A stretch of DNA of 64,000 nt, from NCBI GenBank assembly GCA_963799775.1, contig CAWCYD010000003.1, positions 448,001 through 512,000 on the forward strand, in the 5' to 3' direction. Every line of letters begins with the position of its first letter. Position 1 is the first letter of the stretch. Below, one piece after another: positions 18,187 through 43,616 of this stretch. The DNA is from an uncultured archaeon (GTDB taxonomy: Archaea > Thermoproteota > Nitrososphaeria > Nitrososphaerales > Gagatemarchaeaceae). The notes under the pieces are model-generated. The model was not told the origin of the DNA. It saw only the letters and a list, made by a program, of their open reading frames with translations, and did no database searches. A program made the translations under genes and the position numbers.

Positions 18187-18375
18187 GAGTTACCATGATT
18201 CTGGACTAGATAAGCGCCCATGCCCAGCCTCCTCTGGCGATGAGCCGAGGAGTTGACAAACTTCCTCCCATTAACGTTTATATGAGTTGCAGGTATATTA
18301 GCGAATAATAGGCGAATCAGAACCGATTCTTCCTAGAACCTTTCCCTAGTCTCTATTCCCTCTTTTATCTCTCGA

Positions 18376-18594
18376 ATGTCTATCAATGAACGGCTCCTAA
18401 GAATCAGCCAAGTTGCTGTCCTTCTGAACGTAGGAAAGTCCACCGTCTGGAAATGGACGAAGGAGGGCAGGATCATGTCGGTCAGGCTCCCTGCTGCTCA
18501 GGGCTCGAAGAGGGCTGGGGCCATCCGGATACCTTCGACCGAGGTCTTCAGGCTGCTCGAGGGGAAGGACCCGAAGGCAATGCAGGGGTTCTAG
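18376..18594 (+). CDS. Excisionase-like/MerR-type HTH protein
   Basis: LLRISQVAVLLNVGKSTVWKWTKEGRI...IRIP pattern. Confidence 0.8.
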   Translation: MSINERLLRISQVAVLLNVGKSTVWKWTKEGRIMSVRLPAAQGSKRAGAIRIPSTEVFRLLEGKDPKAMQGF

Positions 18595-18597
18595 GGG

Positions 18598-18897
18598 GTG
18601 TCTTCGATGGAGCCCACTTCACCCGAGGGCGAAGTCCTTGATATCGTGACCCTGTCCAGCAAAGGCCAGCTCGCTCTCCCTGTCGAGGTCAGGGAGCGGA
18701 TGGGCCTGTCCAAGGGAGCCAGGCTCATGGTGATCCTCGCAAAGGATGGCAAGTCGGTCATTCTGAGGACCGTCAGCATCGAAGAGGTGGCCAAGTCTCA
18801 CATGTGGTACCTTTCCAATGCCCGCCGTCGTCCTGGCCCTGCCAAGAAGCAAGAGCCTATCCTTGACTCAAGGCCACAGGTAGAGAGCAATGGCTGA
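18598..18897 (+). CDS. AbrB/MazE/SpoVT-family DNA-binding protein
   Basis: VTLSSKGQLALPVEVRERMGLSKG. Confidence 0.85.
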   Translation: MSSMEPTSPEGEVLDIVTLSSKGQLALPVEVRERMGLSKGARLMVILAKDGKSVILRTVSIEEVAKSHMWYLSNARRRPGPAKKQEPILDSRPQVESNG

Positions 18898-19174
18898 ATC
18901 GAAATAATTTCAGATTACGTATAGCCGCGCTTCGCGCTTACGTAGATAAAGAGAGATTATAGGAAAGCGAAAAAGAGAGAAGCTGTCGCCTATATTACCG
19001 GAGTCCATCAACCAAGTCACCGGGCTGCCAAGATCAGGGCGAAAGAGGCCCGGGGGGTCCAGGCTCAGAAGCCCAAGCTGCAGGCTCGGTCGACGGAGGC
19101 ATAGGGCCTAATTCGCCCATTAGGTTATCCCCGGTTGGATAACCTCATAATGCGGACTCCCCTCAGACAGGACG

Positions 19175-19693
19175 TTGGCAGAATCCGCCGAGGTGCCTAA
19201 GCCCCCAAATCCGAAGAAGAGGAGGCTCCCCCTATCCAAACTCCTCATTCTCTACTTCCTCTCGAACCGGGGCTACGACGGAAGCATCCTTCAGCTGAGC
19301 CGAGACATGGGTTACTCGACCGATAGCAGCGTCAACAAGAACCTCAACGATCTCATTCGAGATGGCTACGTAACTGACGGCCCGGTCTACAAGCTCACCC
19401 CGGCTGGCGTGAGGGAAATCCAGTTCAGTAGGCTCCCGGAAGTCTTGTGCTACTTGATCCTTGGCCTCGGCATATCGGTGCTACTCATCTCGGGTGAAGG
19501 CGTTGCCGGTTTCGTTGCGGAGAGGACCGCTTCGCTCTCGACCTTCGGGCTAGGGGTGGCCATCGTAACCATCGGTGTCTTGTTTCTCGGAGCAAAGAAA
19601 CGGGTCTACGATGATTTCCTAGGCCTTAGGAAGCCTCTCTCACATGCAGAGAGCGCCCCTCGCGAGGACAGAGAGCCCGACTCCGCCGGGTAG
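19175..19693 (+). CDS. Winged-helix protein with two C-terminal TM helices
   Basis: HTH-like SILQLSRDMG...LNDLIRDGYV...YKLTPAG, followed by two hydrophobic segments. Confidence 0.7.
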   Translation: MAESAEVPKPPNPKKRRLPLSKLLILYFLSNRGYDGSILQLSRDMGYSTDSSVNKNLNDLIRDGYVTDGPVYKLTPAGVREIQFSRLPEVLCYLILGLGISVLLISGEGVAGFVAERTASLSTFGLGVAIVTIGVLFLGAKKRVYDDFLGLRKPLSHAESAPREDREPDSAG

Positions 19694-20055
19694 AGGTAGA
19701 ACGGCCCCCCTCGCTATAGGTGGCGAGGGGGTGAAAAAATCGACCTGCCAATACCGATATGGGCTCTCTTGATCGGCATAGTCCTTCTCGTTCTCGCGGC
19801 AGTGGCTGCCCCGGTGCTGTCGTTCGGGGTGATCGCTGTCCTCGTAGTGCTTGGAATACTGTGCCTGATCGTCGGAGTGCTCACAGCTCTTAGCTAGCCT
19901 GAGGAGAGGATGCCCTCTCCTCCTTAGGCATGGAAGGTCGGGGCAAAAACAGTTCTCCAGGCTATAGGGAAAGCACGCGTTGGGCCAAAAACGGAGCCCT
20001 TTGTCCATGATTCCAGACTCGTTGCATTATCTCTGAACTCAATACTTGGAAGGCC

Positions 20056-20310
20056 GTGAAGTTGAACAGAAGGCTAGTCCTGATCGTGGTTAGTGTCGCA
20101 GTAGCTTCCGCTCTAGCCACTAGTCTCTGGTACTCGCACGGCGGACCCTCAGACTTGACGACGAGTGTTACGGTACACGCATCGGGCTCTCCGGGGTGCA
20201 TTACGGAGGCTGCAGGAAACTACGGATCGGTCGAGTCATGTACTTTCTCCGACGGGCGTACTATCGATTGCGTGACCGCAGGGCAAGCCTTGAGCTGTTT
20301 TGGGGCATAG
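20056..20310 (+). CDS. Small secreted or membrane-anchored Cys-containing protein
   Basis: N-terminal hydrophobic helix and four Cys; the stop codon lies inside the 24-bp repeat. Confidence 0.6.
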   Translation: MKLNRRLVLIVVSVAVASALATSLWYSHGGPSDLTTSVTVHASGSPGCITEAAGNYGSVESCTFSDGRTIDCVTAGQALSCFGA

Positions 20311-20343
20311 GGCCTAATTCGCCCATTTCCTCCATCCCGCGGC

Positions 20344-20556
20344 TCAATCTTCGTCATCGTCGGTGTCAGGATCCATGCCTCGCTCGACCGCGCAGGCATG
20401 GCAGTAGGCCCGCTCGTCGACTCCGCTCACCAAGTCCCTGCGGCCTTGATGATAGGCACCCACTTTTGGAATCGTCTTTCCGCAGCCCGCGCACGAGGTG
20501 TAGGCGCTCATAGGCGGGTCGGGCATCGAGCTACTGTAAGTCTCTTTCCCGGTCAT
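20344..20556 (-). CDS. Small C4 zinc-finger protein
   Basis: CAGC...CHAC with an acidic tail. Confidence 0.55.
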   Translation of the reverse strand: MTGKETYSSSMPDPPMSAYTSCAGCGKTIPKVGAYHQGRRDLVSGVDERAYCHACAVERGMDPDTDDDED

Positions 20557-21003
20557 CTGGCCCGGCGTCTCGAGCTTCGGCCAGGCTCGAGGCTGCTCAC
20601 CCCTCAGGCTTCAACGCGAGCCAGAAGAGTCAGCGCGACTTTGACCTGCGACGGGACTTTGCTCGAGTCGAACGTCGGGCCTCGAATCCAAGGAGCTCCT
20701 CATGCGACTTGGCCCTCAGGGTGTGGTGCCGGAGGATCCCGTGCTCCTCCAGGCCTAGCAGCTGATCGTTGCTGGCCATCTCCGGCAGGGCGCCTGATAG
20801 AAAGCTCGACTCGCCATGAGATGAGGACTTGGACGGAGGCCTGGCGTGAGGGGATACATCGTCGAAGGCGTCCGGCGGCCCGTCGTCGAATGGAGAGGGC
20901 CTATGTCGTTTGTACTGAATCGGCTGGGAGTCGAAGAAGCTGAAGCTCATCAATGTTCAAAAGAAGGTCAGGTGCAAAAACGGTATCTTCTTTTTGAACG
21001 CTC

Positions 21004-22041
21004 AGGTGTGTCGAATAACTTCACGATCGGCTACTTTCGCGCATCGCTACTCCGCCCGCCTCTCGTCTAGGGGTTCGAGATCCCGACGAACAGGTTGTAG
21101 ACCTGTGCCTTCAGCAGGAGCTCGTTCACCATGTTCTCCCACTTCACCGAGGTTATGTGCTCCCCGAACGTACGCTTGAACGAGGATATCGCCGACTCGA
21201 CCCTCGCCCGCTGACCGTACCCGTGCCTCCTCTTCCACCGCTCCCTGTCCCTCAGCTGCTCCATCACGACGAGCTTCCTGGGCATGCACCCGAGAGAGTG
21301 CACAGAGGCGTCCTTTCGCACCTTGACCACGGGCTCTATCCCTTTCGAGTCCAGGTAGCTGAATATCTCCCTCGAGTCATACGCCCCGTCCGCTATCGCC
21401 CTCGTGACGCTCGCCTTCGACGACGCTCCCTCCACCAGAGGGACGAGCATCCTCCTGTCGTGCACGTCGTCCTTCGTCACCTCCATCGAGAGTATCTTCC
21501 CGGTCTTGACGTCCACGGCCAGGTGGACCTTGATGAAGCCTCGCTTCACCGCCCACATCTGCCTTATCCACTCCCCTCGGTTGGAGACCTTGATCCCGGT
21601 CGAGTCAACCGCTATGGTGACGTCTTCGTCTGGGTCTACGTTCGGGTCCAGCTCTATCTTTACTCGCGATATCCGCCACCACATCGTGGTGTAGTCTGGG
21701 ACCTTGAGCCCTTCCACGTGTCCCGCGAACATCCTGAGGAACCCCTCCAGCTCCCGGTACGGGAGCAGGTAGACGTGGATGGCTGCGAGCATACTCATTA
21801 ACGAGTCTGGATAGCGATATCTCGCTCCTTCCTTCTCCTCGTTGAGCTTCCCTAGTTCTGCGCTCCATCCAGATAAAAAATCGGTATCGAAGAGGAGCTC
21901 TCCCCTCCTCACCAGCGACTCGTTGTACTCCTTCCAGTTGCGCTTCTTCTTCGTGACCACGCCATCATGAGAGGATTCCCTCTCCTCTCATCCACCTGAG
22001 CGAGGGAACCTTGACCAAACGATTAGTTATTCGACACACCT
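21004..22041 (-). mobile_element. IS5-family insertion sequence (transposase 21067-21960)
   Basis: 17-bp TIR AGGTGTGTCGAATAACT / AGTTATTCGACACACCT; 8-bp target duplication GAACGCTC (20996-21003 and 22042-22049); motifs VDSTG, ADGAYD and R..VES. Confidence 0.95.
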
Positions 22042-22087: not shown

Positions 22088-22465
22088 ATGGAAAGAGGAA
22101 CCAAGGCGGCCATTTCGGTGTTCGCCGTTCTGACGGTCGTAGGGTACCTCATCGACAGCAACCTCGTGCTGGATTTCTACTTCGCGACCATCTCAGGCTT
22201 CATCGCCTTCGGGGTAAAGCGAGCCACGGGTTGGAGTTTCACAAAGGCGTCGGCGGTGTGCCTCTTTGGGTCGATGCTCGTCCCATTCTTCGCGCTGCTG
22301 CTTTACTTCCAGTATGTGGCTGGTTTCCCTCCCGCCCAAACGGGCAGTCTTCTATCCGCCTACATGACTTTATTCGTGGTCGAGCGCTTCCCGTCGGTGC
22401 TTGTGGGTATCTTGGGGGGAGTTGTCTCCGACTCGACGCTCGCTGTCTTGGGTCTGTCGCCCTAG
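22088..22465 (+). CDS. Hypothetical membrane protein
   Basis: About four hydrophobic segments. Confidence 0.6.
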   Translation: MERGTKAAISVFAVLTVVGYLIDSNLVLDFYFATISGFIAFGVKRATGWSFTKASAVCLFGSMLVPFFALLLYFQYVAGFPPAQTGSLLSAYMTLFVVERFPSVLVGILGGVVSDSTLAVLGLSP

Positions 22466-22633
22466 GTTTTTCGCGGCCTGAGATATCAGGATGTCTGGCA
22501 GTTGTTGTCCATGCTTGACGGAGGCCTATTTGATTAAAAGTCCGACCGACCCTCGCTCGCCGGCGAAACGCTGACCAAAATCAAGCGCCCGAGCAATGAG
22601 ACGATCCTGTTCGTCGTCTTAGAGTTCGCTGCC

Positions 22634-23329
22634 ATGTTGGCTTTCATAGAGGCAATCGTCTGGATCGCGCAGCAAGGTTCCTACGGAATCTTCCTCGGAG
22701 ACCTCAACGCGAGCCTCACCATTCCCCCTTTCCAGGCAGTCAACGCATCCGTTGCTCAGCAAACATACCTCTTGAAAGTGGCGGGGAACTTCGCCTCTCC
22801 TCCCACAATCCCGTCTCTGGTAGAAGTTGGACTCTTCACCGTCCTTTCGGCAATCATCGGAATCGGGTTCTCTTTTGAGAAAGACCAGATCGTGGACAGC
22901 CCCCATATCGCCGGAGGCCTGACGTTTCTCGGAAAGCAACTTCGGCCACTCTTCATATCGCTCGCGACGGCGACTTTTGCGGCCTCTCTCTTCTTCGCGA
23001 CTAGCGTCGCACGCGACCGGCAGGCAATTTTCTCCGGCATTCCGCTACTTCCTGCTTCCGTACCGACCGGCCAAAGTCTTGCAGAATCCGCGGTGATCAA
23101 CGCCATGTTGCAATATCGTGACGACAAGTTCTATCAGCTCGTCCTGCTGTTGGCCTTCGGGCTCATGGTCCTTTTCTTGTTCTGCTCGCTTGCCGCCGAC
23201 CGGCAAAGCGGTACCGCGCACCCGAAGGCCCCGTACTTCACGGCCACGTTGTTCCTGCTCTCCATGGCTGTCCTGGGGCTTATCCTTGTCGTCGTCCTGA
23301 TTCTCGCCCTCTTTCCTTTCACCGGCTAA
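22634..23329 (+). CDS. Hypothetical membrane protein
   Basis: Several hydrophobic segments. Confidence 0.6.
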   Translation: MLAFIEAIVWIAQQGSYGIFLGDLNASLTIPPFQAVNASVAQQTYLLKVAGNFASPPTIPSLVEVGLFTVLSAIIGIGFSFEKDQIVDSPHIAGGLTFLGKQLRPLFISLATATFAASLFFATSVARDRQAIFSGIPLLPASVPTGQSLAESAVINAMLQYRDDKFYQLVLLLAFGLMVLFLFCSLAADRQSGTAHPKAPYFTATLFLLSMAVLGLILVVVLILALFPFTG

Positions 23330-23509: not shown

Positions 23510-24172
23510 ATGGACAACAAGGCTATGGACCTCAGCACGGAGAAAGAAATCGATTGGATCGTAGCTGATATGAAGACGAATTTGACTTTCGCGAAAGAGA
23601 ACCACGCCGCGAGAGAATGCTTCACACAAATTACGGAACTCATGAACGACCTGATTGACCATCTTGGGGAGATTCCCAAGGAGCCATCCGAGGTCGTCAA
23701 ATCTTGCAAGTCGATTTACCTCATGAACGTCCTGATGCCGGCCAGCTTCGGCATATACATGGACTTTCTTGCCGGAAACGTTCCCGTCTGCTTCATGCAG
23801 CTACGCATGATCATCGAGTCGATGGCTGAATATTTCGAAGCGGACCGCGTCGCAAGAGCGGATATCTTCTTCTATGAAAAATTGCAGTTCTCAGCCGAAA
23901 TGCAGAAGCGGAAAAGAGAGTCGCTTTCCAAGCTGATTGACGAAGTCGATGGCGAGGCAGCCAAGGTTTGGCACAAATGTTCTGATTGGATGCACTCCCA
24001 AGCTCTCGCAAAGAAATTCGTTGAACAGGTGGCCGAACGCGGCGTTCCAGCGTGGGGGCTCGTGATTCCAATGGAGTACACGGAAGTCGACGAGCAATCT
24101 TTGGTGGAACTGACACGCAATCTGAATCTGTTTAGGACTTCGTTCTCTCGAGTCCTAAAAGGCTGGAAATGA
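23510..24172 (+). CDS. Alpha-helical hypothetical protein, possibly HEPN-like
   Basis: LRMIIE and WHKCSDWMH resemble the R..E and S...H patterns of HEPN-like helical domains; weak support. Confidence 0.5.
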   Translation: MDNKAMDLSTEKEIDWIVADMKTNLTFAKENHAARECFTQITELMNDLIDHLGEIPKEPSEVVKSCKSIYLMNVLMPASFGIYMDFLAGNVPVCFMQLRMIIESMAEYFEADRVARADIFFYEKLQFSAEMQKRKRESLSKLIDEVDGEAAKVWHKCSDWMHSQALAKKFVEQVAERGVPAWGLVIPMEYTEVDEQSLVELTRNLNLFRTSFSRVLKGWK

Positions 24173-24272
24173 GTCATCAGGGTCGGTGGATTGAGCGTGC
24201 ACCGTGAAGAGGCCGATTCAAATCACGGACAACTGAGGAAATCTCATATATGAAAGGGCGACTGATTGAACC

Positions 24273-25364
24273 GTGCCGTTAGACCTCAACACGATGGGAG
24301 GGCACGAGTTCGAGGATCTCGTGGAGAACCTTCTGGTAAAGATGGGGTTCGCCACGGAAGGCAGAAAGCCATCAGCGGATGGAGGGATCGACATAGTCGC
24401 AGTATCCTCCCTTCCCTTGGTCTCAGGTCGGTACATCATTCAGTGCAAGAGGTATGGCCACTCGGTCTCCTCTCCGATAATCCGAGACCTCTACGGGGTT
24501 GTCAGCGCGGAACGTGCCAACAAGGGCATCCTGATAACGACTTCAGCGTTCACCTCAGACGCCATCGACTTCGCCCGAGACAAGCCGATCGAGCTCATAG
24601 ACGGCAATGGGCTCATCGGGCTGCTGGGTAAGTACGGTTTGCTTGGAGACGCTGGACCTAGTCAGCCTGGCGCCCCTATTGCTGCGGGAGTCCTGCGGGT
24701 CGAGATCGCGGGCCTTTCCGACAAGTTTCGGAAGGAACTCGTCGACCTAGAGGCGCAGTTGACTCTCAAACGAAGTACGTTCGGCGATCCGAATAGGACT
24801 CAGGCATACAAGAACTACGGTGAATGGACTCAGAAGATGCAGGTCAGGATCGACGACATGGTTCGCGCCATGAACATCGTCGTGAAGAGCGTAAACGAGT
24901 TCCAGGCCTCCCAATCCCCCGAACTTTCCGACGCCAAACGGATTCGAGGTCAGGCAATCGAGCTCTTCAGCGAAATGTGCTCGACCTACTCTGAGGTCCG
25001 AAAGATCATGCCGCCCCCCGCTTTCTCGCATCATCAGCAAGTCGTGGCCAAGATTGTTCGCGACTTCATGTCGGACTTCACGGATTTTATCGCGAGAACT
25101 GAGGAGTCTCTAGAAAAGGGGGGCGGAGCGGTGGAATTCAAGCTCGAATTTCGGGAACGGGACGAGATGGCCCAGGCCATCAAGGAAGGGCAACAGGGGT
25201 TTCATGAAGTCGGGATGAGGACCGCCAAGCACCATCGTATCCGTCACACTGGAGGCCTCTTCTCAGACAATCGTCAGTGGGTGTGCAGCTGCGGATTTCG
25301 GAGCCCCGACAGGGGTGCAGCGATGGACCACCTGAAGACCTACACCGGAAGAAGGCCGTTATAG
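24273..25364 (+). CDS. Mrr-like restriction endonuclease with helical extension and C-terminal Cys/His finger
   Basis: EFEDLV, DGGID, IQCKRY, GILITTSAFT and IELIDG. Confidence 0.88.
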   Translation: MPLDLNTMGGHEFEDLVENLLVKMGFATEGRKPSADGGIDIVAVSSLPLVSGRYIIQCKRYGHSVSSPIIRDLYGVVSAERANKGILITTSAFTSDAIDFARDKPIELIDGNGLIGLLGKYGLLGDAGPSQPGAPIAAGVLRVEIAGLSDKFRKELVDLEAQLTLKRSTFGDPNRTQAYKNYGEWTQKMQVRIDDMVRAMNIVVKSVNEFQASQSPELSDAKRIRGQAIELFSEMCSTYSEVRKIMPPPAFSHHQQVVAKIVRDFMSDFTDFIARTEESLEKGGGAVEFKLEFRERDEMAQAIKEGQQGFHEVGMRTAKHHRIRHTGGLFSDNRQWVCSCGFRSPDRGAAMDHLKTYTGRRPL

Positions 25365-25396: not shown

Positions 25397-26077
25397 CTAC
25401 TGCTTCTTGTAGACGTACTCCGGGACCCCAACCAGGAGCGTCATCAGGGCCGCGATTCCTCCGGTGCGGGTCCACCAGTCCGTTGAGAGCTCCATCGCGG
25501 AGGCGACATGAACAGGGTTAATCCCAGTCACGACCTTCGTGGTTCCGTTCGCGTATTGTGCGGTCATTACCGGAGCAGAGTCGCCTGAATTGGACCACTG
25601 GATCACTGTGGTGGTGGAGTTGAGAAATGTCATTGGAGAGATGTATGGGTTGCAGTAGATCGCCCCGTCCAAGCTGGGAGTCAGATTGACACCCCACCCG
25701 CCTCCTCCATTGATGAGATATTGGTCGGTGGGTGCCTGTCCTTGAGCACCGGGAAAGACTACGGAAACGGAATCAAGGCCCTTGGCAAGGCCAGGCGACA
25801 CGCAGCCATAAGAGACCATGTTCACAGGATCGTTCTGCTCGATGGTTGAGTTCGGAGTAAGCAAGATCTCCACTGTGATGTACTCTCGGCTGCTGGCGTT
25901 TCCCAGGTATTGGCCCGCTCCGCTTACCTGAGGGTAGTGGAGCGTTATCCAGATCGGTTGAGTCGGCTGAGGCGCGTGACTAAGGTACGGAATGGGGAAC
26001 ATCGCGATGTTCGCGAAGCCTACGACGAAGACCGCAACGTACCAGGCCACAAGCACAACGCGCGTCTTTGAGGGCAA
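25397..26077 (-). CDS. Membrane-anchored extracellular protein
   Basis: TM helices at both ends around a polar, beta-rich domain with N-x-S/T sequons. Confidence 0.6.
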   Translation of the reverse strand: MPSKTRVVLVAWYVAVFVVGFANIAMFPIPYLSHAPQPTQPIWITLHYPQVSGAGQYLGNASSREYITVEILLTPNSTIEQNDPVNMVSYGCVSPGLAKGLDSVSVVFPGAQGQAPTDQYLINGGGGWGVNLTPSLDGAIYCNPYISPMTFLNSTTTVIQWSNSGDSAPVMTAQYANGTTKVVTGINPVHVASAMELSTDWWTRTGGIAALMTLLVGVPEYVYKKQ

Positions 26078-26085
26078 CCTGGTGC

Positions 26086-26733
26086 CTAGGCTCTTCGAGG
26101 CCCGCGAACCACATGGACTAGCTGAGAGAAGATGCTCGTCGAGTAGTTGTAGGGTATCTCTTCGGGCGGGCCTGACACCGTAGTAGAAGAGTTGAGACCT
26201 AGCTTGATCTTGGCCAGCTTCATCCCGATCACCCAGAACGTGATGAGGAATAGCCCTTCGCCGATTGCGCCTCCTCCCACGGTTACGTCAAACCAGCTCC
26301 TCACCAAGGGCGACGCCGAGGAAAACGGAATCGAGTGGAAGGAGGGGACGAAGAGGTTCAGCATCATCAGCGGAGTGGCAACGAGAAAGCCTCCCTTCCA
26401 TGGCCTCAAGCGCTGGACACGGCTGCTCAGCACCAGCGACAGAAAGGCGGCGAACAGCCACACCATGAAGGGAGCCGGGCTGCCTGTTGCGAGCGCCACG
26501 TCGTCCGAGTAGATCCCTGGCAGATACCAGCCGAAGAGGAGGATGACGACCCCGAGCCAACTTCCAATGGCGACCAGGACAATCCGCCGCCTCGTCGTTA
26601 GGGAGATACGCGAAGCGAGCGACGACCCCTGCTTGTAGAGCCAGACGAGCACGTTCCAGAGGGCTATCGCTATCACTCCGTCCACGACTCCCTGCAGAAG
26701 CCCGGACATCCAGGTCTGCTTGATGCGCGCCAT
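26086..26733 (-). CDS. Hypothetical membrane protein
   Basis: About five hydrophobic segments. Confidence 0.6.
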   Translation of the reverse strand: MARIKQTWMSGLLQGVVDGVIAIALWNVLVWLYKQGSSLASRISLTTRRRIVLVAIGSWLGVVILLFGWYLPGIYSDDVALATGSPAPFMVWLFAAFLSLVLSSRVQRLRPWKGGFLVATPLMMLNLFVPSFHSIPFSSASPLVRSWFDVTVGGGAIGEGLFLITFWVIGMKLAKIKLGLNSSTTVSGPPEEIPYNYSTSIFSQLVHVVRGPRRA

Positions 26734-35375: not shown

Positions 35376-35912
35376 TTAGGCGGGTTGAGAGAGTATCGAG
35401 GCGGAACCGAGTCTCGTCCACGCAGAAAGCTCGTTCTTCAACTCGGGGGTGACATATTGCTCCTTGAACATCAGCTTCTTGGCGTCGTTCATGGATATGG
35501 TCAACTGCTCCTCGGAGAAGTTCTCCTTCCACAGCCTGAGTTTCTCCCTGATCCCTAACTCGTCCATCTTTGGATATGCATCGTACATCAGATAGACTGC
35601 ACTCGCAGCTCCTTCGAGCCTCGAGACCTCGATTGGCACACTCTCCTTGACGTGATTGAGGATTCTCTTCTGGGCTGCTGTGGGCTTCGGACTTTGGAGT
35701 GCCTGATATTCATCCCGATATATCCACATCTCCTTGTCGAGGTTCATGGAGTACGGGCCGCGACTGCGCCTCTCGAACTTGAAGTTGATTCCGAACCCCA
35801 GTTTCTTCAGGAGGTAGGTTATCTTCTGGATTACTATCCTGTCGTCTTGGCTGTCGATATTCGGTGCGAATCTCAGATACCCAAGTGCAGTGAGGATTTC
35901 GTCAGTTGCCAA
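35376..35912 (-). CDS. YwgA/Panacea-like winged-helix protein; putative antitoxin
   Basis: RIVIQKITYLL...F.F....GPYS motif; directly upstream of the toxin gene. Confidence 0.6.
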   Translation of the reverse strand: MATDEILTALGYLRFAPNIDSQDDRIVIQKITYLLKKLGFGINFKFERRSRGPYSMNLDKEMWIYRDEYQALQSPKPTAAQKRILNHVKESVPIEVSRLEGAASAVYLMYDAYPKMDELGIREKLRLWKENFSEEQLTISMNDAKKLMFKEQYVTPELKNELSAWTRLGSASILSQPA

Positions 35913-36510
35913 AGTAATCTTCCACGACTTCCAGCTTTTTGTATGGTTTTTACCGTATTAAGACTTTGTGAAGAAGGTGCCTCAGGTCCGGGGTTCAAAT
36001 GGTTAGGTTTTCGCCCCGAGCCCCTGGACGCCTCCTGGCTAACCTTAATACAGAATTCCCCGCACAAGGTGAGGAATGAGCAAGGAGGACTAAATTTACT
36101 ACTGTTCGAATCGTTGGTCCCCCCGAGGACGGATAGCCTGATTTCATGACTCAAGTTCGATTCTAACTGCTTGAGTTCAGATTTCCTATAAAGACCTCCG
36201 AATGACGTATAAATTGGGGAGAGCGGCGACAAAGCCGTGCCCGCCCTACGAATTCCTTGCGACGCGAGAAGAATGTCCAGGGCCTGCGAGAATGCCATTC
36301 ACGAAATCCCCGTCAGCATCGGGAATGGATCGGTTCAACAATGGGATGCCACTGCGGCGGAGATCTCGTTCTGGAGACATCTCACCAACGATCAACAGAA
36401 TGCTCTAGTTCAAAGCCAATACCAAGGGTGCTTCCTGTGCAACCTCGACTCGATGATGCCTTGAGCTGGCCTCTACAAGACTAAATAACGCGGCTGGCCG
36501 GAAACCACCG

Positions 36511-37152
36511 TTGGCGGCTCAGCAGGAACTTCTTCTCGTCGAAGTTGTCGCGGACAAGGACACTTGCACTTCGATTGAGAACGCGCTACAGAACTCGCAG
36601 TTCTTTCATTCCATCGAATCCCGCGAACCCTTGAAGTTTAGAGTGATCGCTCATCCAGTGGTTCTCGCAATGCTTCTCACTTTCCTTGAAACAAGGGCGG
36701 CAGCGATTTCTGGCAAGATTACGATGAACGATGGGACAGTCTATCAGCTGGACGCCTACGGGATGGATGAACTCAAGAAGGCGACAGCCAGAAAACTAGG
36801 GGCGACGCCATCAGCGACTCCCTCATCTCCTGGCCCTCAGACCGGTCCAAACGTCGTTGATCTATTCATGGCCGCCCTGAGCAATCCAGAGGCGACAGGG
36901 AAACTCGTGAAGGAAATCGCGAGTGCTTTGCGGGGAGATCCGGCAGTCGCGCTTGAGGAAACCAAGCAAATCTCCCGCTTCACGTTAGCGATCATGAGCC
37001 TAATGGCCGCCGTGATTATTGGGGCCTCAGTCCTGGGCTACTTTGGAAAGATCGGCGGCGACACCGTCGGCATAGTCTACGGGACAGTGATAGGCAGCTC
37101 CTTCGCGTTTCTCTACAAGTACCTTGGCGCACCTGAGGAAGGCCAATCCTAG
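36511..37152 (+). CDS. Hypothetical protein with C-terminal two-TM hairpin
   Basis: Soluble N-terminal domain, Pro/Ser linker, then two TM helices. Confidence 0.65.
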   Translation: MAAQQELLLVEVVADKDTCTSIENALQNSQFFHSIESREPLKFRVIAHPVVLAMLLTFLETRAAAISGKITMNDGTVYQLDAYGMDELKKATARKLGATPSATPSSPGPQTGPNVVDLFMAALSNPEATGKLVKEIASALRGDPAVALEETKQISRFTLAIMSLMAAVIIGASVLGYFGKIGGDTVGIVYGTVIGSSFAFLYKYLGAPEEGQS

Positions 37153-37157
37153 CAAAG

Positions 37158-38138
37158 TCAGGAGGCAGGCAGGGCCCGGCCGATACGTCGCTCATCGAGC
37201 TGGTACACTCCGTAGATGTCACCAAACAACGTATCACGATATTGCCAAGTGTTTGGAAGGGTCAAGGTCACGAAGAATTTCTGTCGAGTCACATGATGCA
37301 AATTGGAATACACGGCACGTCCTACTAGCACCTGATTCTTTTTTGCAATGCCGCAGATCTTGGCGGCGACGTTCATGGTGTAGCCTAGCAGATCTCTCGA
37401 ATTCTTGATGTCCTTCGACCCCAGCTCGACTATCTGGTTCTCGCCGCAATCGACACCAATTCTAAAGCCGATTTCCGGATAGCCTTGCTCGACCAGGGCC
37501 GGGATCAAGACCTCTCGCATGAACATCCAAGCGACGATAGCGCAGTCGCCTGCATTGTCAATCATTCCGGGGAAGTTCCTCTCGGCCGGGAAATACCCGA
37601 TTAATCCATCACCGGTGTACTTCAAGACATAACCTCTGTAGCCGTTTATCAGGAGAGTTATCTCGTGTGATAGGACTGTCACGATCTTGTTCATCTTTTC
37701 AGCACCTAGAGTTCTGCTCATCTCTGTCGAACCAACCAAATCGATGTAGAGAACAGCGAAGACCATCGTCTTGTCCTTGTTGAGCTCCAGGAAGTTCTCG
37801 GAAAGGTCGATTCCCCTCTCGATCTTTAATTCCTCTGACAGAAGTTGCTTGACTCTCGGCTTGGCTTCCTGAAAATACGCCGTAAGATCTTTGATGGTGG
37901 GTGGAGATTGTACGATTGGAACCTCCATTGAGCGCATCCACCCCTCGATCAATTCTTCTTCGAGTAGGACAATCTTGCTGCCCTTGTCACGCCAGGCCTT
38001 CTTGCCGTCCAAGTCAAACTGCTCGTATCTGGTCGGGTCGAGTTCGATTTCAAACCTCAACAGTCCCTTCTCTTTGTCTATGACCTCGACGTTCTTGATT
38101 TGAAGGTCGATTCGAAAGGGGCCCTTGCCGATTGGCAA
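37158..38138 (-). CDS. Class III nucleotidyl (adenylate/guanylate-type) cyclase
   Basis: LYIDLVGST, KYTGDG, RIGVDCG and DLLGYTMNVAAK. Confidence 0.9.
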   Translation of the reverse strand: MPIGKGPFRIDLQIKNVEVIDKEKGLLRFEIELDPTRYEQFDLDGKKAWRDKGSKIVLLEEELIEGWMRSMEVPIVQSPPTIKDLTAYFQEAKPRVKQLLSEELKIERGIDLSENFLELNKDKTMVFAVLYIDLVGSTEMSRTLGAEKMNKIVTVLSHEITLLINGYRGYVLKYTGDGLIGYFPAERNFPGMIDNAGDCAIVAWMFMREVLIPALVEQGYPEIGFRIGVDCGENQIVELGSKDIKNSRDLLGYTMNVAAKICGIAKKNQVLVGRAVYSNLHHVTRQKFFVTLTLPNTWQYRDTLFGDIYGVYQLDERRIGRALPAS

Positions 38139-38301
38139 CAGCTCTCATGAGATAGGGCTGATATTGAACTTTCAAATCCACAGGATTAATGACAGCGTGG
38201 ACAACCCGAAAACAGCCTAATCATGGACAAACAGAGATAGCGAGAGCGCCTTCAGAACAACGGGGGCGGAAGCTGGTTGTCCATGGCAAAACGCGCCGAA
38301 A

Positions 38302-38649
38302 TTGACCCATAATTGGCACAGGTTTTTAGACTCGTCTCGTCTTCTCTATTCCGCAATGACGGGAAAAGTGAGCGAGAAAGAAATCATGGACAACGAATTT
38401 CAGCAGTGTCCATTCTGCGACAGACTCTTCGAGAAGTCCTACCGGATTGCGGTGACCACGGAGCTAGAGGAGCACATCAGAACACAGCACGGGAGGGTGA
38501 AGGTATGGCGGGGTCGAAACGTGCGGTGGTGCCCCGCCTCCGAAGTAAGAAAGAAAATGGCCAGGGCGCCCGACAGCGCCCAAGGCCCAGCAGAAGGTCA
38601 ACCGTTCAGGGCGGCCGATCCTTCACATGGCAAAAGCGAGCGAAGTTAG
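38302..38649 (+). CDS. C2H2 zinc-finger protein
   Basis: CPFC...HIRTQH; the true start is uncertain. Confidence 0.7.
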   Translation: MTHNWHRFLDSSRLLYSAMTGKVSEKEIMDNEFQQCPFCDRLFEKSYRIAVTTELEEHIRTQHGRVKVWRGRNVRWCPASEVRKKMARAPDSAQGPAEGQPFRAADPSHGKSERS

Positions 38650-38890
38650 AGAAACGTCTTCGGAGCGTGACGAGCTCCGCGTTCGCAGGCCCTGGCCTCG
38701 CGTGCAGATAGAACTCGACGCGCACAATCAACCCTATCTCGCGCGATATCTCCACACCGAGACCGCCAAGCCGGCAGAACTCAGCGACGAAGTGCTGAGA
38801 CTCGCCAACGCATTGATGTGCCTTCGGCTCCCCAAGAGTCCGGCGAAGCGCCCAGAGGAGAGTAGCCCAGAGGAGAGTAGCCGCCCATGA
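38627..38890 (+). CDS. Hypothetical protein with a 15-bp tandem duplication (38851-38880)
   Basis: CCCAGAGGAGAGTAG twice; overlaps both neighbours. Confidence 0.5.
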   Translation: MAKASEVRETSSERDELRVRRPWPRVQIELDAHNQPYLARYLHTETAKPAELSDEVLRLANALMCLRLPKSPAKRPEESSPEESSRP

Positions 38891-39084
38891 AAGGCAGAAT
38901 CTGCTTCGAAGCTGAAGCGGGCGACGTCGTAGAAGTAATGCGCCAAGGAAACGAGCTCGTTCCAGTACGCCATGAGGACTTGAAAGAGATGCGGGAACTC
39001 GCTGGCAAATACGAGACTCTGCGACAACTTCTCGGCCGGGATCCGCTCGAAACTTACCAGAAGAGGAAGTGGAGGGAGGTCTAG
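38887..39084 (+). CDS. Hypothetical protein
   Basis: ATGA overlap with the upstream gene; ends just before the helicase. Confidence 0.55.
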   Translation: MKGRICFEAEAGDVVEVMRQGNELVPVRHEDLKEMRELAGKYETLRQLLGRDPLETYQKRKWREV

Positions 39085-39087
39085 CGC

Positions 39088-40863
39088 TTGACCGATGAGC
39101 CTGAGTCCAAGGCCGTGGAGCTGATTAGTATTGCAGAGGCCAGCTGCAGTTTCTTCACTGACCAGCACGGGACTCCGTACGCTTTTCGAAATAATCCTGG
39201 GCACGTCTCCGCGCTGAAGTCAAGGGAGTTCAAAGTTTGGCTAGTGGGGGAGTTCTACAAGAGGCATGAGGAGGCTGTCGGCAGCGACGCGATCTCCGCA
39301 GCGGTCAATGTGTTGGAAGCCAAGGCCAACGAATCAGCGCGCGTGACGCTGTCTACCAGGTGCGGCATGGATGGACCGAGAAGACTCCTGATCGACCTAG
39401 CCAGCAAAGACGAGCAGACGGTGGTCATTGACGCGGGTGGGCTCAGAATCGAATCCCTCGCTGAACCGAAGTTTCGAAGATACTCTCACATGGTCCCGAT
39501 GGAGGTCGCGGCGGACGCGGCTGACCTGAAAGAGTACGCGAAGTTCTGGAGGTTCAAGGATCCGGCCGATGACGTTTTGCTTGTGGGATTCATCGGTCAC
39601 GCCTTTGTAAGTGAGATTCCTCACGCAATCCTGGTCCTCATCGGTTCTAAGGGGAGCACGAAGACCACTGCGACAAGGGCGACGCGGCAGATTATCGACC
39701 CCAGCTCGGTCGCCGATCTCACGATTGGAGAGAAGGGCAAGGAGTTTGTTCAGCAGCTCGCGCACAACTACGTCCCCCTCTTCGACAACGTTTCGAAGCT
39801 GCAGCCCTGGCAGGCCGACGACCTCTGTAGAGCTTCGACCGGAGCAGGATTCTCCAAGCGCGAGCTCTACAGCGACGAAGACGATGTAATCTTCATGTTC
39901 AAGCGGGTCGTCATTGTCAACGGAATCAACACGCCGACCCAGAGGCCAGACTTCCTGGATCGAAGCATCCTAATTGAGTGTGCCAGGGTTCCGAGGGGAG
40001 AACGCCTCGAGGACAGCCAAGTCCAGGCGAAAATCTCGGAATGGATCCCTCGCCTCCGCAGGTCAATCTTCGAGGCCCTAGCAACAGCTACGCAGCTGAT
40101 TGACCAGGTCCGCGGAGAGCTGAAAGAGCTGCCCAGGATGGCGGACTTCGCGATATGGGGTGAGGCCTTCTGCAGGGCGTCCGGATACGCCCCTCTCGAG
40201 TTCTACAATCGCCTCATGGAGAAGGTCGACGAGACCAGCACTATAGCCCTCGAGAATGACGTGATCGCCGAGCTTCTCTTCAAACTCTTCGACGATCCGA
40301 AGAGTCTGACATACGGTTCCAAAGAGTTCGAGTGCACATCTAGTGAACTCCTCAAGACCCTTGTTGCCCTCAACGAGGAGCTGAAGTATGTAGGTCCGAA
40401 GGAACTTCCATCCTCACCGGATTCATTGGGTCGGCGCCTTGGGGAGCTCGCAGCCGACCTGGAGGAGGTGGGAATCAGGATCAGGCGTAACAGGTCCAGA
40501 AGGAAGCGCTCATACATCATCAGCAGGGTCTCCCCCAGAGGTAGCGAAGAAGCGTCACACGTGTCACTAGTGTCACCCACGGTGGGCCCAAACGGGGGCC
40601 AAAATGACACTTCTGTGACACGTGACGCTTCAAAACAGACTCCGATTGAAACCCCAGTGACACATGACGCTAGTGACACATGTTCGCTACCTCTAGGGGG
40701 GCAGGGGTTAGCAGCGAAGTCCAAGGCCAGCATTCCCCATTTCTTCTGCTCAGTCTGTGGCAAGGAGATAGGGACGGGCCTTGAGCTCAGCATCTACAAG
40801 ATAGGGAAGGAAAGGTTCTGCAAGGCCTGCTACCTCGAGAAGAAAGGGGAGGCCTCGGCATGA
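39088..40863 (+). CDS. Replication ATPase/helicase (SF3-like) with C-terminal zinc finger
   Basis: Walker A GSKGSTKTT, Walker B PLFDN, KRELYSD, VIVNGI, DFLDRS and PRMADF; C-terminal CSVC...CKAC. Confidence 0.75.
   Translation: MTDEPESKAVELISIAEASCSFFTDQHGTPYAFRNNPGHVSALKSREFKVWLVGEFYKRHEEAVGSDAISAAVNVLEAKANESARVTLSTRCGMDGPRRLLIDLASKDEQTVVIDAGGLRIESLAEPKFRRYSHMVPMEVAADAADLKEYAKFWRFKDPADDVLLVGFIGHAFVSEIPHAILVLIGSKGSTKTTATRATRQIIDPSSVADLTIGEKGKEFVQQLAHNYVPLFDNVSKLQPWQADDLCRASTGAGFSKRELYSDEDDVIFMFKRVVIVNGINTPTQRPDFLDRSILIECARVPRGERLEDSQVQAKISEWIPRLRRSIFEALATATQLIDQVRGELKELPRMADFAIWGEAFCRASGYAPLEFYNRLMEKVDETSTIALENDVIAELLFKLFDDPKSLTYGSKEFECTSSELLKTLVALNEELKYVGPKELPSSPDSLGRRLGELAADLEEVGIRIRRNRSRRKRSYIISRVSPRGSEEASHVSLVSPTVGPNGGQNDTSVTRDASKQTPIETPVTHDASDTCSLPLGGQGLAAKSKASIPHFFCSVCGKEIGTGLELSIYKIGKERFCKACYLEKKGEASA
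40549..40680. repeat. Iteron-like GTCAC/RTGAC cluster; putative element origin
   Basis: GTCAC at 40554, 40563 and 40572 (9-bp period) facing six TGAC copies between 40605 and 40677. Confidence 0.7.
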
Positions 40864-41051
40864 GCCTAACGAGTCCTCGAGCTGAGATCTACTACTGCGA
40901 AGGGTGCGGGTCGCCCAGTGAACCGGTAAGGTGCCTACGGAACATTCCACGAAGGGTCGTCGTCCTCGAGGCTTCGGCCAGGACGTACGGAGTCATTTGG
41001 AGCTTCTTCTGCCGCAGGTGCGAGGCGCGAGAGAGGAGCCGCAGATCATGA
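40860..41051 (+). CDS. Small C4 zinc-finger protein
   Basis: CEGC...CRRC; ATGA overlap with the helicase. Confidence 0.6.
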   Translation: MSLTSPRAEIYYCEGCGSPSEPVRCLRNIPRRVVVLEASARTYGVIWSFFCRRCEARERSRRS

Positions 41052-41533
41052 CCGCCCAGGAATCCGTGCCGAACGCCGGTCGGTATCTTTGCCCAAAGTG
41101 CTCGGAGGTGCCCTTGAGCTCGTCCTAGAAACCGGCGAGCTTGTCTGTCCTCAGTGCGGCATTGCGTTCGAAGACCCTGGCGCGAAGATCCTGAGGTTCG
41201 TCCCAGAGGGGAGCTCGATCAACTCGCCCGGAATGGTCCACGGGCTTGGAACGGACCAGCGCGAGCTGATTCGCCAATTCCATGCGTTAGGGATGAAGAA
41301 CGGAGGCGCTGAGAGGCCGGACGGCTACATGCTCTCCATAAATGGACCTTTGGAGCGGCCACAGCGACGATTCATTTTGGATTTCCATCACGCAGAAGCT
41401 CAAGGACAGAGGAATGAGCCCCGAGAGGATTGCCCTTGTCAGCGCGGTGCTTAGGAAGGAGATCGCTCACATGAACGCCCAGAAGACCGCAGAGTTGCAA
41501 ACCTTGCTCCGACAGATGGGGATTGACCCTTGA
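41048..41533 (+). CDS. TFIIB-type zinc-ribbon protein (frameshifted)
   Basis: CPKC in one frame and ETGELVCPQCG in the next. Confidence 0.5.
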
Positions 41534-42281
41534 TTCAGGAGATCTCTCTCGCTGATAGACCCGAACCCGTTTCAGTCGCGGGAGCCAGACGAGGGAGACG
41601 AGCTCCGTTCTGTGAAGGAGCTAGGCATGCTCAGAGTCGCCCTGATTGTCAGGCCGAGCTCCGTTGCTCAAGGACGTTTCCAACTGGCATTCGGACACAG
41701 GACCATCCAGACCCTCAGGAAACTAGGTCGAATCTACGTCCCCTGTGAAGTCCGATCCTTGAGCGACCGTGAGATGGCCAAGATGCTCCACGTCGAAAAC
41801 GAAGACAGGAGGGGACTCAGCGACGCAGAGCGAGGCCGATTCTATCAGCACTACATGAAGGACTTTGGCCTGTCAACCAGGGAGCTCGAGCGAGAGCTCG
41901 GCGTCGACCAAGGCAGCATCGTCAGGTGCGTCGGGATTGCCGACACCGCAAAGGCGATGGAAGGCTCCATCAGCGAGCCTCTTTCACGAGCGTTCGAGTA
42001 CGCCGTCACGGAGATCAAGTACAAGGAAGCCTCGAAGCTGAAGGACGAGGCGAAGAAGGTTCAGGTCCCTCGCCCAAGTTGCGGAGCATGACCTGAGTAG
42101 CGATCTGACGAAACTGCTGGTCGCAAAGGCCCAAGCAGGGATGACCGTGGCCGAGGCGGCGGCTGAGGTGGTAAACCTCAGGGAGGCCCGGAAATCCGAA
42201 TCGTACGCAGAGAGGAGAAGGCGGGTCGAGTGTCCCACGTGCAAGGGAGCCGGATTCATTTTGAGGGATGAGAAGGCTTGA
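41530..42281 (+). CDS. Second ParB-like protein; frameshifts
   Basis: FQLAFGHRT, VENEDRRGLS, HTH STRELERELGV, C-terminal CPTCKG. Confidence 0.75.
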
Positions 42282-42323
42282 GCGAGCAGGACTACGTCAG
42301 GGTGCCGAGGTCCGAGCTCGCCG

Positions 42324-43565
42324 CTATTCTTTCTGACCTCGAGCGCCTGAGGAAGCTGGTTGAGAAGACTCAAGAGAAGCAATCCTCTTCTGAAGGCTCA
42401 CGATGAGCTCCATCATGGGCTTCAGCTCCTTGTCCTTCTCGTCCCTAGCTATCGCCTCGTTGAAATCAAGTGAGACGTGCGGCTCGATCCTGAGATAGGC
42501 CTGTCTCAGGTCTTCGGGATGGACCTGGTCTCTGTCGTCGTAGACGGCCGCGATCCCTCCTTCGTGCCCCATCATCTCCTCGACGAAAGCGGACTTCACC
42601 CCGCAGTGCTCGGCTTCGGTCTTGAAGCTGTGTCGCAGCATGTGGCTCCTCCAGCTCGAGGGTTCTCCGTTCTCGACCATCCCCTGGGCGTGCATCCTCA
42701 AGGCGATCTTCCTCATTTGCTGATTGAGCCACTTTGGGTCGACTCCGGAGCCCTGTAGCTTGCCGGCAAATACCAGGTCAGAGGGCAGGGGTTCTCGCGC
42801 CATTTCCTCCGCCCATCGCTGCCGGAGGAGCCTCAAGTGCTCGATAGAGTCGCGCCCGAGGAACGTGTACCATGGTTTCTTGTGATTCTTCCTTCCCAAG
42901 AACGAGAGCTTCAGTGGATGATCCGCCCTGCGAAGGCCCTCGTCGATGTCCTTCCAACGCAACCCGAGGATCCTGTTGACCTCGCAGCTCGACTGCCAAA
43001 CTAGAAGCAGCGGCGTCCGTATCTGCAGGGGGAGGGCCTTCAGCACCTTGCGGATGTCCTCCGAGCTCAGGGGCTTGTCTCGCGGCTCCCCGTCCGACTC
43101 CGCTATCCTCACCTCCCCGAACAAAGGGCTGTCGTTCCGCTCGTACCACTTCTTGACCGTCGACGCCGCCCCCGCCCTGTAGCTCATCGCGTACCCCTCG
43201 AGCTCCTTGTTGACGAAGGTCTCGAGCCATTCCCGGTGCTTCCTCTTCTGCGCGACGTCCTCCGCCTCCGACCGGTAGATGCACCTCAGATTGTCCGTGA
43301 TGAGCTCGTCGGGCGCCAGGTTCGTCGTCCCCGACCCCTTGAGCCACCTGAAGTACAGCAGGAGGTGGAGCGAATACACGGATTGCACCCTCACCTTCCC
43401 GTAGGAGCTGAGGAATCGCTTCACCGCCTCGCTTGGCCCTATCTTCCTTAGGTTGTTCTCGAGAGCTTTCTGGGCTCTCCGGATGACGGTCGGAGTGCTC
43501 CGACCCGCCTCGATTGCCGTTGCTTGCATGTTCCTATCAGTAAAAGCCTTCTTGGTTGTGGACAT
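42324..43565 (-). CDS. Tyrosine recombinase/integrase
   Basis: HMLRHSF, MMGH and catalytic Tyr (AVYD); box I is atypical (SSCEVNR). Confidence 0.88.
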   Translation of the reverse strand: MSTTKKAFTDRNMQATAIEAGRSTPTVIRRAQKALENNLRKIGPSEAVKRFLSSYGKVRVQSVYSLHLLLYFRWLKGSGTTNLAPDELITDNLRCIYRSEAEDVAQKRKHREWLETFVNKELEGYAMSYRAGAASTVKKWYERNDSPLFGEVRIAESDGEPRDKPLSSEDIRKVLKALPLQIRTPLLLVWQSSCEVNRILGLRWKDIDEGLRRADHPLKLSFLGRKNHKKPWYTFLGRDSIEHLRLLRQRWAEEMAREPLPSDLVFAGKLQGSGVDPKWLNQQMRKIALRMHAQGMVENGEPSSWRSHMLRHSFKTEAEHCGVKSAFVEEMMGHEGGIAAVYDDRDQVHPEDLRQAYLRIEPHVSLDFNEAIARDEKDKELKPMMELIVSLQKRIASLESSQPASSGARGQKE

Positions 43566-43616
43566 TTGCCCCCGCCACGTTTATATTGGTTCTTGCGCCA
43601 ATTGGCACTCACGGGC

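Follow-up and report, generated by a model that had tools for sequence, protein, structure and literature searches.

A probable plasmid-like cryptic element of a soil Nitrososphaerota lineage, bounded by a 10-bp core that coincides with a putative TATA-box region between two divergent host genes

The window analysed here is a stretch of 64,000 nucleotides (G000:C3:448001-512000) of an archaeal genome of 2.47 Mb, which is 82% complete in 3 contigs and has 59% G+C. Between its trmI gene and a TRAM-domain gene lie 26.6 kb of DNA, within which positions 18284-43586, delimited by two copies of the 10-bp word ACGTTTATAT, hold a tyrosine integrase at one end, an excisionase-like and an AbrB-type gene at the other, and replication, maintenance and defence genes in between. 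We consider it likely that 18284-43586 is one integrated mobile element, inserted site-specifically and of the plasmid-like cryptic kind. Open reading frames (ORFs) were called mechanically and scored for codon usage with a model trained on the long ORFs of the genome, a gene finder too weak on foreign DNA for several of the small ORFs; 49 ORFs were then scanned against Pfam, 36 against PHROGs and PADLOC, and 37 against NCBIfam. The features that define the element and its host context are the following (aa, amino acids; att, attachment site; HTH, helix-turn-helix; RHH, ribbon-helix-helix; SF3, superfamily 3).

16145-16930, minus strand: trmI (GCD14), host context, divergent from the TRAM gene in empty sites
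18274-18283: attL core ACGTTTATAT, with the host-type left flank TA kept, as in empty sites
18376-18594, plus strand: excisionase-like HTH_17 protein, 72 aa (Pfam 1.1e-9; TIGR01764 1.1e-7; phrog_66)
18598-18897, plus strand: AbrB/SpoVT-type DNA-binding protein, 99 aa (PF04014 1.6e-5; TIGR01439 6.8e-10)
31914-32564, minus strand: weak ParB-like protein with a zinc ribbon (PHROG and NCBIfam scans)
34234-35001, plus strand: RHH and P-loop ATPase of FtsK/HerA-like look (P-loop matches below cut-off), its likely start being an internal ATG at 34348
39088-40863, plus strand: putative replication protein of 591 aa, a D5-like SF3 helicase that lacks a primase domain and has a zinc finger at its C-terminus (fold match)
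40554-40682: cluster of five partly palindromic iterons, GTGACACRTG, in the poorly modelled linker of the helicase; putative origin
41612-42091, plus strand: ParB/RepB-like protein, 159 aa (TIGR03454 3.2e-15, below its cut-off), in common with the element of genome G095
42324-43565, minus strand: intact tyrosine integrase of 413 aa (PF00589, 38 bits with the cut-off at 27.1; phrog_1 2.7e-21)
43577-43586: attR core ACGTTTATAT, coinciding with the putative TATA-box region of the TRAM gene at -37 from its ATG (43617), with the element-derived left flank CCCCGCC
43617-43907, plus strand: TRAM-domain gene, host context, whose presumed promoter holds the att core
43922-44485, minus strand: endA, tRNA-splicing endonuclease, host context

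The word ACGTTTATAT occurs twice in the window against an expectation of 0.01, a count that 0 of 100 shuffles reached, and these copies, at 18274 and 43577, are the only two on either strand of the 2.47-Mb genome. No direct repeat beyond 12 nt was found between the two element ends. The initial annotation had bounded an element of 25 kb at 18274 and 43586 and had named this word as the only one that its borders share; both placements proved exact. The bases that precede the core are TA at attL (CTA, CGA, CCA or TTA in empty sites) and CC at attR, as would be expected if reciprocal recombination took place inside the 10-mer. Including one copy of the core, the element measures 25,303 bp, or 24,239 bp once a nested insertion sequence (IS) is subtracted, and its G+C content is 56.7% as against 59-60% in the flanks.

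Comparison with relatives reveals the same boundaries. The distance from trmI to endA is 26,995 bp here and 371 bp in G006, the two genes being neighbours in congeners. When the window was aligned by BLASTN with six relatives, homology on the left stopped at 16906-16948, and on the right it restarted exactly at 43577 in 5 of 5 close relatives and at 43706 in the more distant G015. With the core and five host bases as the pattern and at most one mismatch allowed, matches were obtained in 11 of the 23 genomes of the genus, and their flanks were read together with those of a metagenome contig, L112. Empty sites are found in G006, G008, G046 and G048, in the order trmI start codon, 24-27 nt, core, about 30 nt, TRAM start (ATGAGCAGCGGC). 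Other DNA lies between trmI and the core in G011, G013, G017 and G018 (a DEAD-box-helicase-like gene, secreted proteins, host-like genes), with an IS copy there as well in G017, and the match in G002, which has one mismatch and no TRAM start, is an unrelated locus. The site is occupied in the window and in L112, and G045 retains a relic. A direct repeat at both ends and a single-copy empty site in relatives are the marks of site-specific integration, and both are present. The initial annotation had suggested looking for either trmI or tnpB next to TRAM at the empty site: trmI does adjoin TRAM there, and tnpB is not an empty-site neighbour, being part of a separate insertion with paralogues.

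The same site is used by a relative of the element. When 41 window proteins were compared by tblastn with 165 loci fetched through the helicase, L112 alone had more than one element gene, in the order helicase (56% identity), winged-HTH (wHTH)/zinc-ribbon ORF, integrase (59%), CCCCGCC plus ACGTTTATAT, TRAM (77%) and endA (88%), the integrase starting 14 nt from the core. The relic in G045 consists of about 25 N-terminal integrase codons followed by TCTCCCCGCC, ATGTTTATAT and TRAM, and an unrelated membrane-protein gene occupies the position expected for the element. In three genomes or contigs, then, the CCCCGCC arm adjoins both the integrase start and the core. The element genes have diverged much further than the host flanks, and the site is empty in four congeners; it looks as though one attachment site has been used repeatedly, rather than a single insertion having been inherited.

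We next consider what the core may be to the host. Among 252 TATA-like hexamers upstream of 1,239 predicted genes, 118 have their first base at -40 to -29 relative to the start codon that was chosen. The TTTATA of the core starts at -37 from the TRAM ATG, and on the opposite strand ATATAA starts at -34 from the trmI ATG in G006; the core followed by TGGTT is conserved in nine TRAM-linked relatives, one of which has a C-to-T change. From position and conservation we infer that the core is one quasi-symmetric TATA-box region for both divergent genes. Synteny and position thus speak for the earlier proposal of integration into a promoter, at a TATA-like boundary word upstream of TRAM. That no tRNA gene serves as target had also been claimed, in agreement with our results: ARAGORN predicted 0 tRNA genes in the whole window, and Rfam families (tRNA included) gave 0 matches in 15000-46000 at E ≤ 0.1.

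The genes expected at the ends of such an element, an excisionase-like HTH protein and an AbrB protein on one side and a tyrosine integrase on the other, had been named from the start and are all there by Pfam, PHROG and NCBIfam matches. The integrase has the residues of a tyrosine recombinase (R203, K226, H308, R311, H334 and Y342), of which four (K226, R311, H334 and Y342) do not vary among the 7 aligned sequences, R203 being replaced in 2 and H308 in 1 of the 6 homologues. It is a single ORF of 413 codons whose start codon lies 11 nt from the att core, so that the core is outside the gene and the arrangement is not that of SSV-type (“suicidal”) integration, in which attP is located within int and the gene is split upon integration. 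A phmmer search against PDB chains found no sequence relatives. Homologues of 39-57% identity are present in 23 of 97 genomes of the host family, the genome of the window included; no tRNA lies within about 1.5 kb of the homologue in any of 11 fetched loci, and among 8 larger contexts only G095 has the ParB in common and only G104 the ATPase. Elsewhere in the host genome (G000:C2, about 256580-256700), a 39-codon ORF resembles the N-terminus of the G017 integrase at the place where G017 carries that gene; it may be an att site that overlaps the 5′ end of int, or a relic.

The 591-aa protein matched no Pfam, PHROG or NCBIfam family and has no PDB relatives by sequence. Of 8,000 candidates scored, 359 were relatives (best non-self match 82% identical), many of the longer ones carrying primase-type Pfam domains, PF09250 (Prim-Pol) among them, and VapE-like_dom was matched by 2 of 20 family members. 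An AlphaFold2 (AF2) model built from a 20-sequence alignment has a mean predicted local distance difference test (pLDDT) of 79.5, with residues 484-548 disordered, and its top Foldseek matches are the SaPI5 primase-helicase, the African swine fever virus (ASFV) PrimPol, SCCmec Cch, monkeypox virus (MPXV) E5/vaccinia D5 and NrS-1 (E 6e-9 to 5e-7). G186, G189 and K192 are invariant in the P-loop stretch. The fold, together with the primase-bearing homologues, points to a D5-like SF3 helicase, its activity being predicted. Plasmid records with this family number 27 and include a 12-kb Methanothrix plasmid (30% identity), as against 2 records of one phage; a search of 96 other host-family genomes at E ≤ 1e-20 gave none. 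Two of its relatives have contexts of some interest. P0002, the 82%-identical helicase, lies on contigs of up to 24,554 bp, a length near the 24,239 bp of the element without its IS. L084, a contig of a Nitrososphaeraceae metagenome-assembled genome, encodes at 9068-14468 a 943-aa primase-helicase (35% identity in the helicase part) and, 2.3 kb away with no integrase between, a TRAM-domain gene (47%), which may be a coincidence.

An SF3-like helicase with iterons had been part of the initial annotation, and both parts stand, the iterons being clustered in the 3′ part of the gene. With at most one mismatch, GTGACACRTG occurs 7 times in the window, a total that does not exceed chance expectation, since 28 of 100 shuffles give at least as many. 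What deserves attention is that 5 of the 7 lie close together within 40554-40682, and this cluster may serve as a replication origin. A perfect 15-nt tandem repeat of 2.2 copies lies at 38850-38882, about 200 nt upstream of the helicase start. The two ParB-like genes and the RHH-ATPase that had been described are likewise present at 41612-42091, 31914-32564 (the weak one) and 34234-35001, the last with P-loop matches below cut-off only. The nearest Atlas cluster of the RHH-ATPase is an archaeal AAA_22/DUF87 group (0.96), it has no match in GenBank virus records, and a homologue (38%) resides in the 5.8-kb element of G104 (L027/L028; G104:C9, about 227070-233800). That element is flanked by direct repeats of about 430 bp, which correspond to the 3′ part of a pilin-like gene, and carries an integrase (38%) and a RelE/ParE-like pair.

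These observations can be assembled into a mechanism. The element's own tyrosine recombinase would have inserted it by conservative site-specific recombination through the 10-bp core ACGTTTATAT, which in the uninterrupted chromosome would be the single TATA-box region between the divergent trmI and TRAM genes. Since recombination duplicates the core, each host gene would retain a TATA box, attL keeping that of trmI and attR that of TRAM, the upstream bases of the TRAM promoter, on the side of the B recognition element (BRE), having been replaced by the element's CCCCGCC. A free circle would replicate by the D5-like SF3 helicase from the iterons inside its gene, the ParB-like proteins and a MazF toxin-antitoxin pair would maintain the element, and an Mrr nuclease and a Pycsar-like cyclase would be its anti-virus cargo. 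A TnpB unit (16950-18253) sits in the spacer of about 20-27 nt between the trmI start and the TATA box, so that in this genome trmI would be without direct promoter contact.

A bolder reading, to which we attach a low probability, is that the integrase lineage takes promoter TATA boxes as attachment cores, rewiring transcription on both sides, and that expression of int is set by the topology of the element. With the shared TATA box duplicated, trmI and TRAM would both stay expressed, and the host-side promoter half at attL would point into the excisionase/AbrB end of the element. In the chromosome, int would have no space for a promoter of its own because the TATA of the core lies at -21, and a TATA-like box at about -37 would be regained only in the excised circle, from 18294-18303. 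Two other genomes have integrases in comparable positions. In G047, host homology stops behind an AT-rich word of 16 nt, 13 nt ahead of the int ATG, in what is a 125-bp divergent intergenic region of G000. The same divergent geometry is seen in G005, where the integrase points away from the 5′ end of a gene orthologous to window gene 10865-11548. The G047 integrase is 44% identical and its junction lies at G047:C3 near 319750, the empty counterpart being G000:C3:1568614-1568739; a second junction was not found in the 26 kb to the end of the contig. The target in G104 is the 3′ part of a gene, and promoter targeting is for that reason a lead for part of the integrase family, not a rule.

The remaining features of the element and its left neighbour are listed below (TM, transmembrane).

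16950-18253, minus strand: TnpB-only unit, outside the element, between trmI and attL
19098-20327: segment between perfect 24-nt direct repeats (19098-19121 and 20304-20327), a repeat found nowhere else in the genome
20991-22054, minus strand: nested IS with a DDE_Tnp_1 transposase (21067-21960) and 30-nt terminal inverted repeats
22088-23329, plus strand: two multi-pass membrane proteins, 125 and 231 aa, with no Pfam, PHROG or NCBIfam family
23510-25364, plus strand: 220-aa protein without assigned role, then an Mrr_cat (type IV-like) restriction endonuclease, 24273-25364 (Pfam 2.5e-32; mREase_IV 1.5e-18)
25397-27345, minus strand: three membrane or secreted proteins, 226, 215 and 189 aa
28556-28954, plus strand: 132-aa three-helix membrane protein, probably the “hairpin” protein of the initial annotation
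29309-34313, minus strand: leftward run of nine ORFs without family, including the weak ParB-like gene (31914-32564) and a TM and beta-rich orphan ORF (33738-34313)
34998-35912, minus strand: MazF/PemK toxin (34998-35357; Pfam 1.5e-19) and a 178-aa putative antitoxin (35376-35912)
36511-38138: Pycsar-like nucleotide cyclase (37158-38138, minus strand; PADLOC), convergent with a 213-aa protein (36511-37152, plus strand)

Two insertions, one inside the element and one outside, are separate from it. The nested IS has three more copies in the genome, 99.5-99.7% identical, and is an IS of the host that has inserted itself into the element. TnpB, whose paralogues lie elsewhere on the contig at 85, 84 and 72% identity (one of them in the window near 54149-55423) and which sits outside the repeat-bounded segment, is a separate insertion, made before or after the arrival of the element. 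These TnpB units are of the IS200/IS605 type, with an RNA-guided nuclease gene and no TnpA seen. The segment 19098-20327 holds a wHTH protein with two TM helices (19175-19693, plus strand) and about 600 nt without a convincing ORF; its 24-nt repeat could consist of operators or iterons, or be a scar left by a nested insertion. The frame of one membrane-protein gene seems to shift from 1 to 2 near 28190 (ORFs 27631-28473 and 28223-28417), which may be a frameshift or an assembly error, and the only match of the 191-aa TM and beta-rich protein (33738-34313) is itself. A hydrophobic 19-mer occurs at least once in ten of the 37 element ORFs, a set that includes the IS transposase, in line with the “about ten” membrane proteins counted earlier, and 7 of the 37 have a CxxC-type pair, 3 of these having two.

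The 178-aa ORF that precedes MazF has only weak matches, to the middle region of DarG antitoxin models; it may resemble a Panacea-type antitoxin domain. The cyclase is matched by 12 PycC models (best 3.1e-22). A Pycsar system is reportedly made up of a PycC cyclase and an adjacent effector, in which a cyclic-nucleotide-binding domain is fused to a TM or TIR part. The 213-aa neighbour has two C-terminal TM helices, no match to a domain binding cyclic nucleotide monophosphates (cNMP), and is convergent, not co-directional. The pair at 36511-38138 may be a pyrimidine-cyclase defence system on an archaeal element. An Mrr-type nuclease, MazF and a Pycsar-like cyclase would be defence genes riding on an element of this type.

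Several observations weigh against the interpretation of 18284-43586 as a site-specifically integrated, plasmid-like element with a promoter core. The core is only 10 bp, and the left junction was observed once, since L112 ends within the helicase. Neither an excised circle nor an attP or attB variant was detected for this strain. Variable DNA precedes the core in G011, G013, G017 and G018, so that the right boundary is also the start of a conserved promoter, which would be enough alone to end the alignments, and the promoter function of the core is grounded in position statistics, not in mapped transcript starts. Ten membrane proteins and about 20 ORFs are without known role. Some features lean to the viral side: the sub-threshold leads of the 132-aa protein to capsid families of spindle-shaped viruses, the Atlas look-alikes of the RHH-ATPase (0.86-0.88, sub-threshold), which are mostly viral clusters including A32/Zot, and the 8 related stretches that an IMG/VR scan with this ATPase detected.

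In a soil run, X1, in which 17% of sampled words were present, contigs of 190-320 bp at depth 2-4 on 27000-46900 were identical to the window and showed no joint; the contig across attR has 13 nt on the element side, too short for bridging, and the run is uninformative on excision, copy number and empty sites. The attP/attR 17-mer had 0 matches in IMG/VR.

The alternative that survives best, although we judge it rather improbable, is that the element is real but has become fixed and lost its mobility, being retained for its defence genes as a domesticated island. A host IS has landed in it, the membrane-protein gene at about 27631-28473 appears to change frame, about 1.3 kb (19700-20990) lack a convincing ORF, the relic in G045 is an instance of such an element decaying where it had inserted, and no alternative junction was seen. 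Against this, the integrase and the excisionase-like gene are intact, the catalytic residues of the former are present, the two cores are identical, and the IS lies outside any recognisable gene; the element may still be mobile today.

Less plausible, in our opinion, is the view taken in the initial annotation that this is a provirus or virus satellite. It would be the provirus of an unrecognised membrane-containing archaeal virus (spindle-shaped, pleomorphic or with an internal membrane), or a packaged satellite, in which the ATPase packages DNA and the helical membrane proteins build the particle. The share of membrane proteins (10 of 37 ORFs), the lack of a known role for most ORFs, as is common in archaeal viruses, the FtsK/HerA-type matches of an RHH-ATPase whose Atlas look-alikes below 0.9 are mostly viral, and the top fold match of the helicase, a phage-satellite protein, are all compatible with such a virus. 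Yet no capsid, terminase, portal, spike or other virion gene of a known type was found with Pfam, PHROGs or NCBIfam (36 ORFs), nor in IMG/VR, in GenBank virus records or by fold search; the Atlas scores are under the tool's own line of 0.9; the ATPase homologue of G104 belongs to a 5.8-kb element with little room for virion genes; and the helicase family is commoner in plasmid records than in those of phages.

The most capsid-like candidate is the 132-aa protein, probably the capsid-like hairpin protein that had been annotated. The clusters nearest to the 132-aa protein among family-bearing ones in the Atlas are fusellovirus VP1_VP3 (0.84) and His1 capsid (0.82). It has 34 relatives in 1.84 billion representatives. 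The 2006-aa P0251 and P0258 were dropped, and 33 aligned sequences (the query and 32 of the relatives) were scanned: two touch PHROG coat or capsid families (E 0.0017 and 0.0079), one touches TrbC/VirB2 (E 0.0046), which we take as chance, and none matches His1_capsid or VP1_VP3. The protein itself matches no capsid family in Pfam, even at E ≤ 10, or in PHROGs, and nothing in 50,697 virus records or IMG/VR, and its AF2 model (pLDDT 79.8), which consists of three long helices, finds no BFVD match at E ≤ 0.001. With leads that all stay below threshold and a blank fold search, we do not retain the capsid assignment.

Finally, it is very improbable that the 26.6 kb between trmI and TRAM are a patchwork of unrelated insertions in a variable hot spot, with an incidental 10-bp repeat: unrelated DNA does occupy the spot in G011, G013, G017 and G018, TnpB and the IS are independent insertions, a perfect 24-nt repeat brackets 1.2 kb within the element and the defence genes could form a separate island, but the 10-mer occurs nowhere else in 2.47 Mb and, in three genomes or contigs, stands beside the start of the integrase gene with an identical CCCCGCC arm, TnpB is outside the repeat-bounded segment, and the modules for helicase, ParB and integrase form one group, which is met again at this junction in L112.

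We return to a site-specifically integrated element. Because it has no detectable virion or conjugation genes (no integrative-conjugative hallmark was found among 36 ORFs with Pfam and NCBIfam), it best fits a plasmid-like “cryptic integrated element” (CIE) of Nitrososphaerota, a class defined by exclusion. As the definition of this class has it, an integrase and att sites are present without viral, casposon or conjugation hallmark.

The closest named homologues of trmI (81% and 73% identity) carry the label Thaumarchaeota archaeon, and homologues at 63-64% that of Nitrososphaerota or Nitrososphaerales, as anticipated for a Nitrososphaerota-like host. A search for amoA gave no match in the 82%-complete genome nor in any control genome and says nothing on its absence. 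The element is cleanly bounded and probably recent, it comes from a poorly studied soil Nitrososphaerota lineage, and its primase-less D5-like helicase with an intragenic iteron cluster would be added to the candidate archaeal replicons. Its attachment site appears to coincide with a bidirectional TATA box and is reused within one genus; if both host promoters survive recombination, this would explain how so short a core is tolerated in a sensitive spot. The 10-bp core with its defined arms also offers a concrete substrate on which archaeal integrases can be tested. A literature search, limited and not exhaustive, turned up no account of an att core placed on a TATA box.

Among known systems, the closest are the thaumarchaeal CIEs. 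In the survey of these elements by Krupovic et al. 2019 (PMC6563490), att sites go down to 8 bp with a median of 17, sizes range over 2.6-98 kb, and 15 of 68 elements are intergenic, 39 lie in tRNA genes and 14 in 3′ gene parts; the word “promoter” has 0 occurrences in the main text. The element of the window shares with them a tyrosine integrase of the XerC/XerD family, a short att, an intergenic target, a size within the range, an S3H-type replication protein, Zn-ribbon and RHH proteins, restriction and toxin-antitoxin cargo and a nested IS. It differs in its high-G+C host lineage, in a core that would be the TATA-box region of a divergent gene pair, and in a helicase that has no primase domain and is found in 0 of 96 other genomes of the host family.

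With the pNOB8-type conjugative plasmids of Sulfolobus, as outlined in PMC5861418 and PMC8371274, it has in common an att upstream of an int that stays intact after integration. The att is 10 bp here and 40-50 bp there (PMC8371274), conjugation genes and a tRNA target are missing here, and the likeness is one of layout. Integration of the lambda-like or PsiM100-like kind, as covered in PMC8371274, likewise uses a short AT-rich intergenic core with integrase and excisionase-like gene at opposite ends, whereas here the core would be a bidirectional promoter element that relatives in the same genus reuse, and virion genes are lacking. The predicted helicase shares its fold, a D5_N-like N-part, a P-loop core and a helical or winged C-part, with D5-like SF3 primase-helicases (SaPI5, 7OLA; SCCmec Cch, 5DGK; NrS-1, 6K9C; poxvirus D5/E5; ASFV PrimPol), from which it is set apart by 10-14% identity, the lack of a primase domain, and an additional zinc finger at the C-terminus, which follows a disordered linker encoded by the iteron-bearing DNA. 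The known classes of archaeal mobile elements are left unchanged by this element, and its unusual part is a clear, reused attachment site at what is probably a TATA box.

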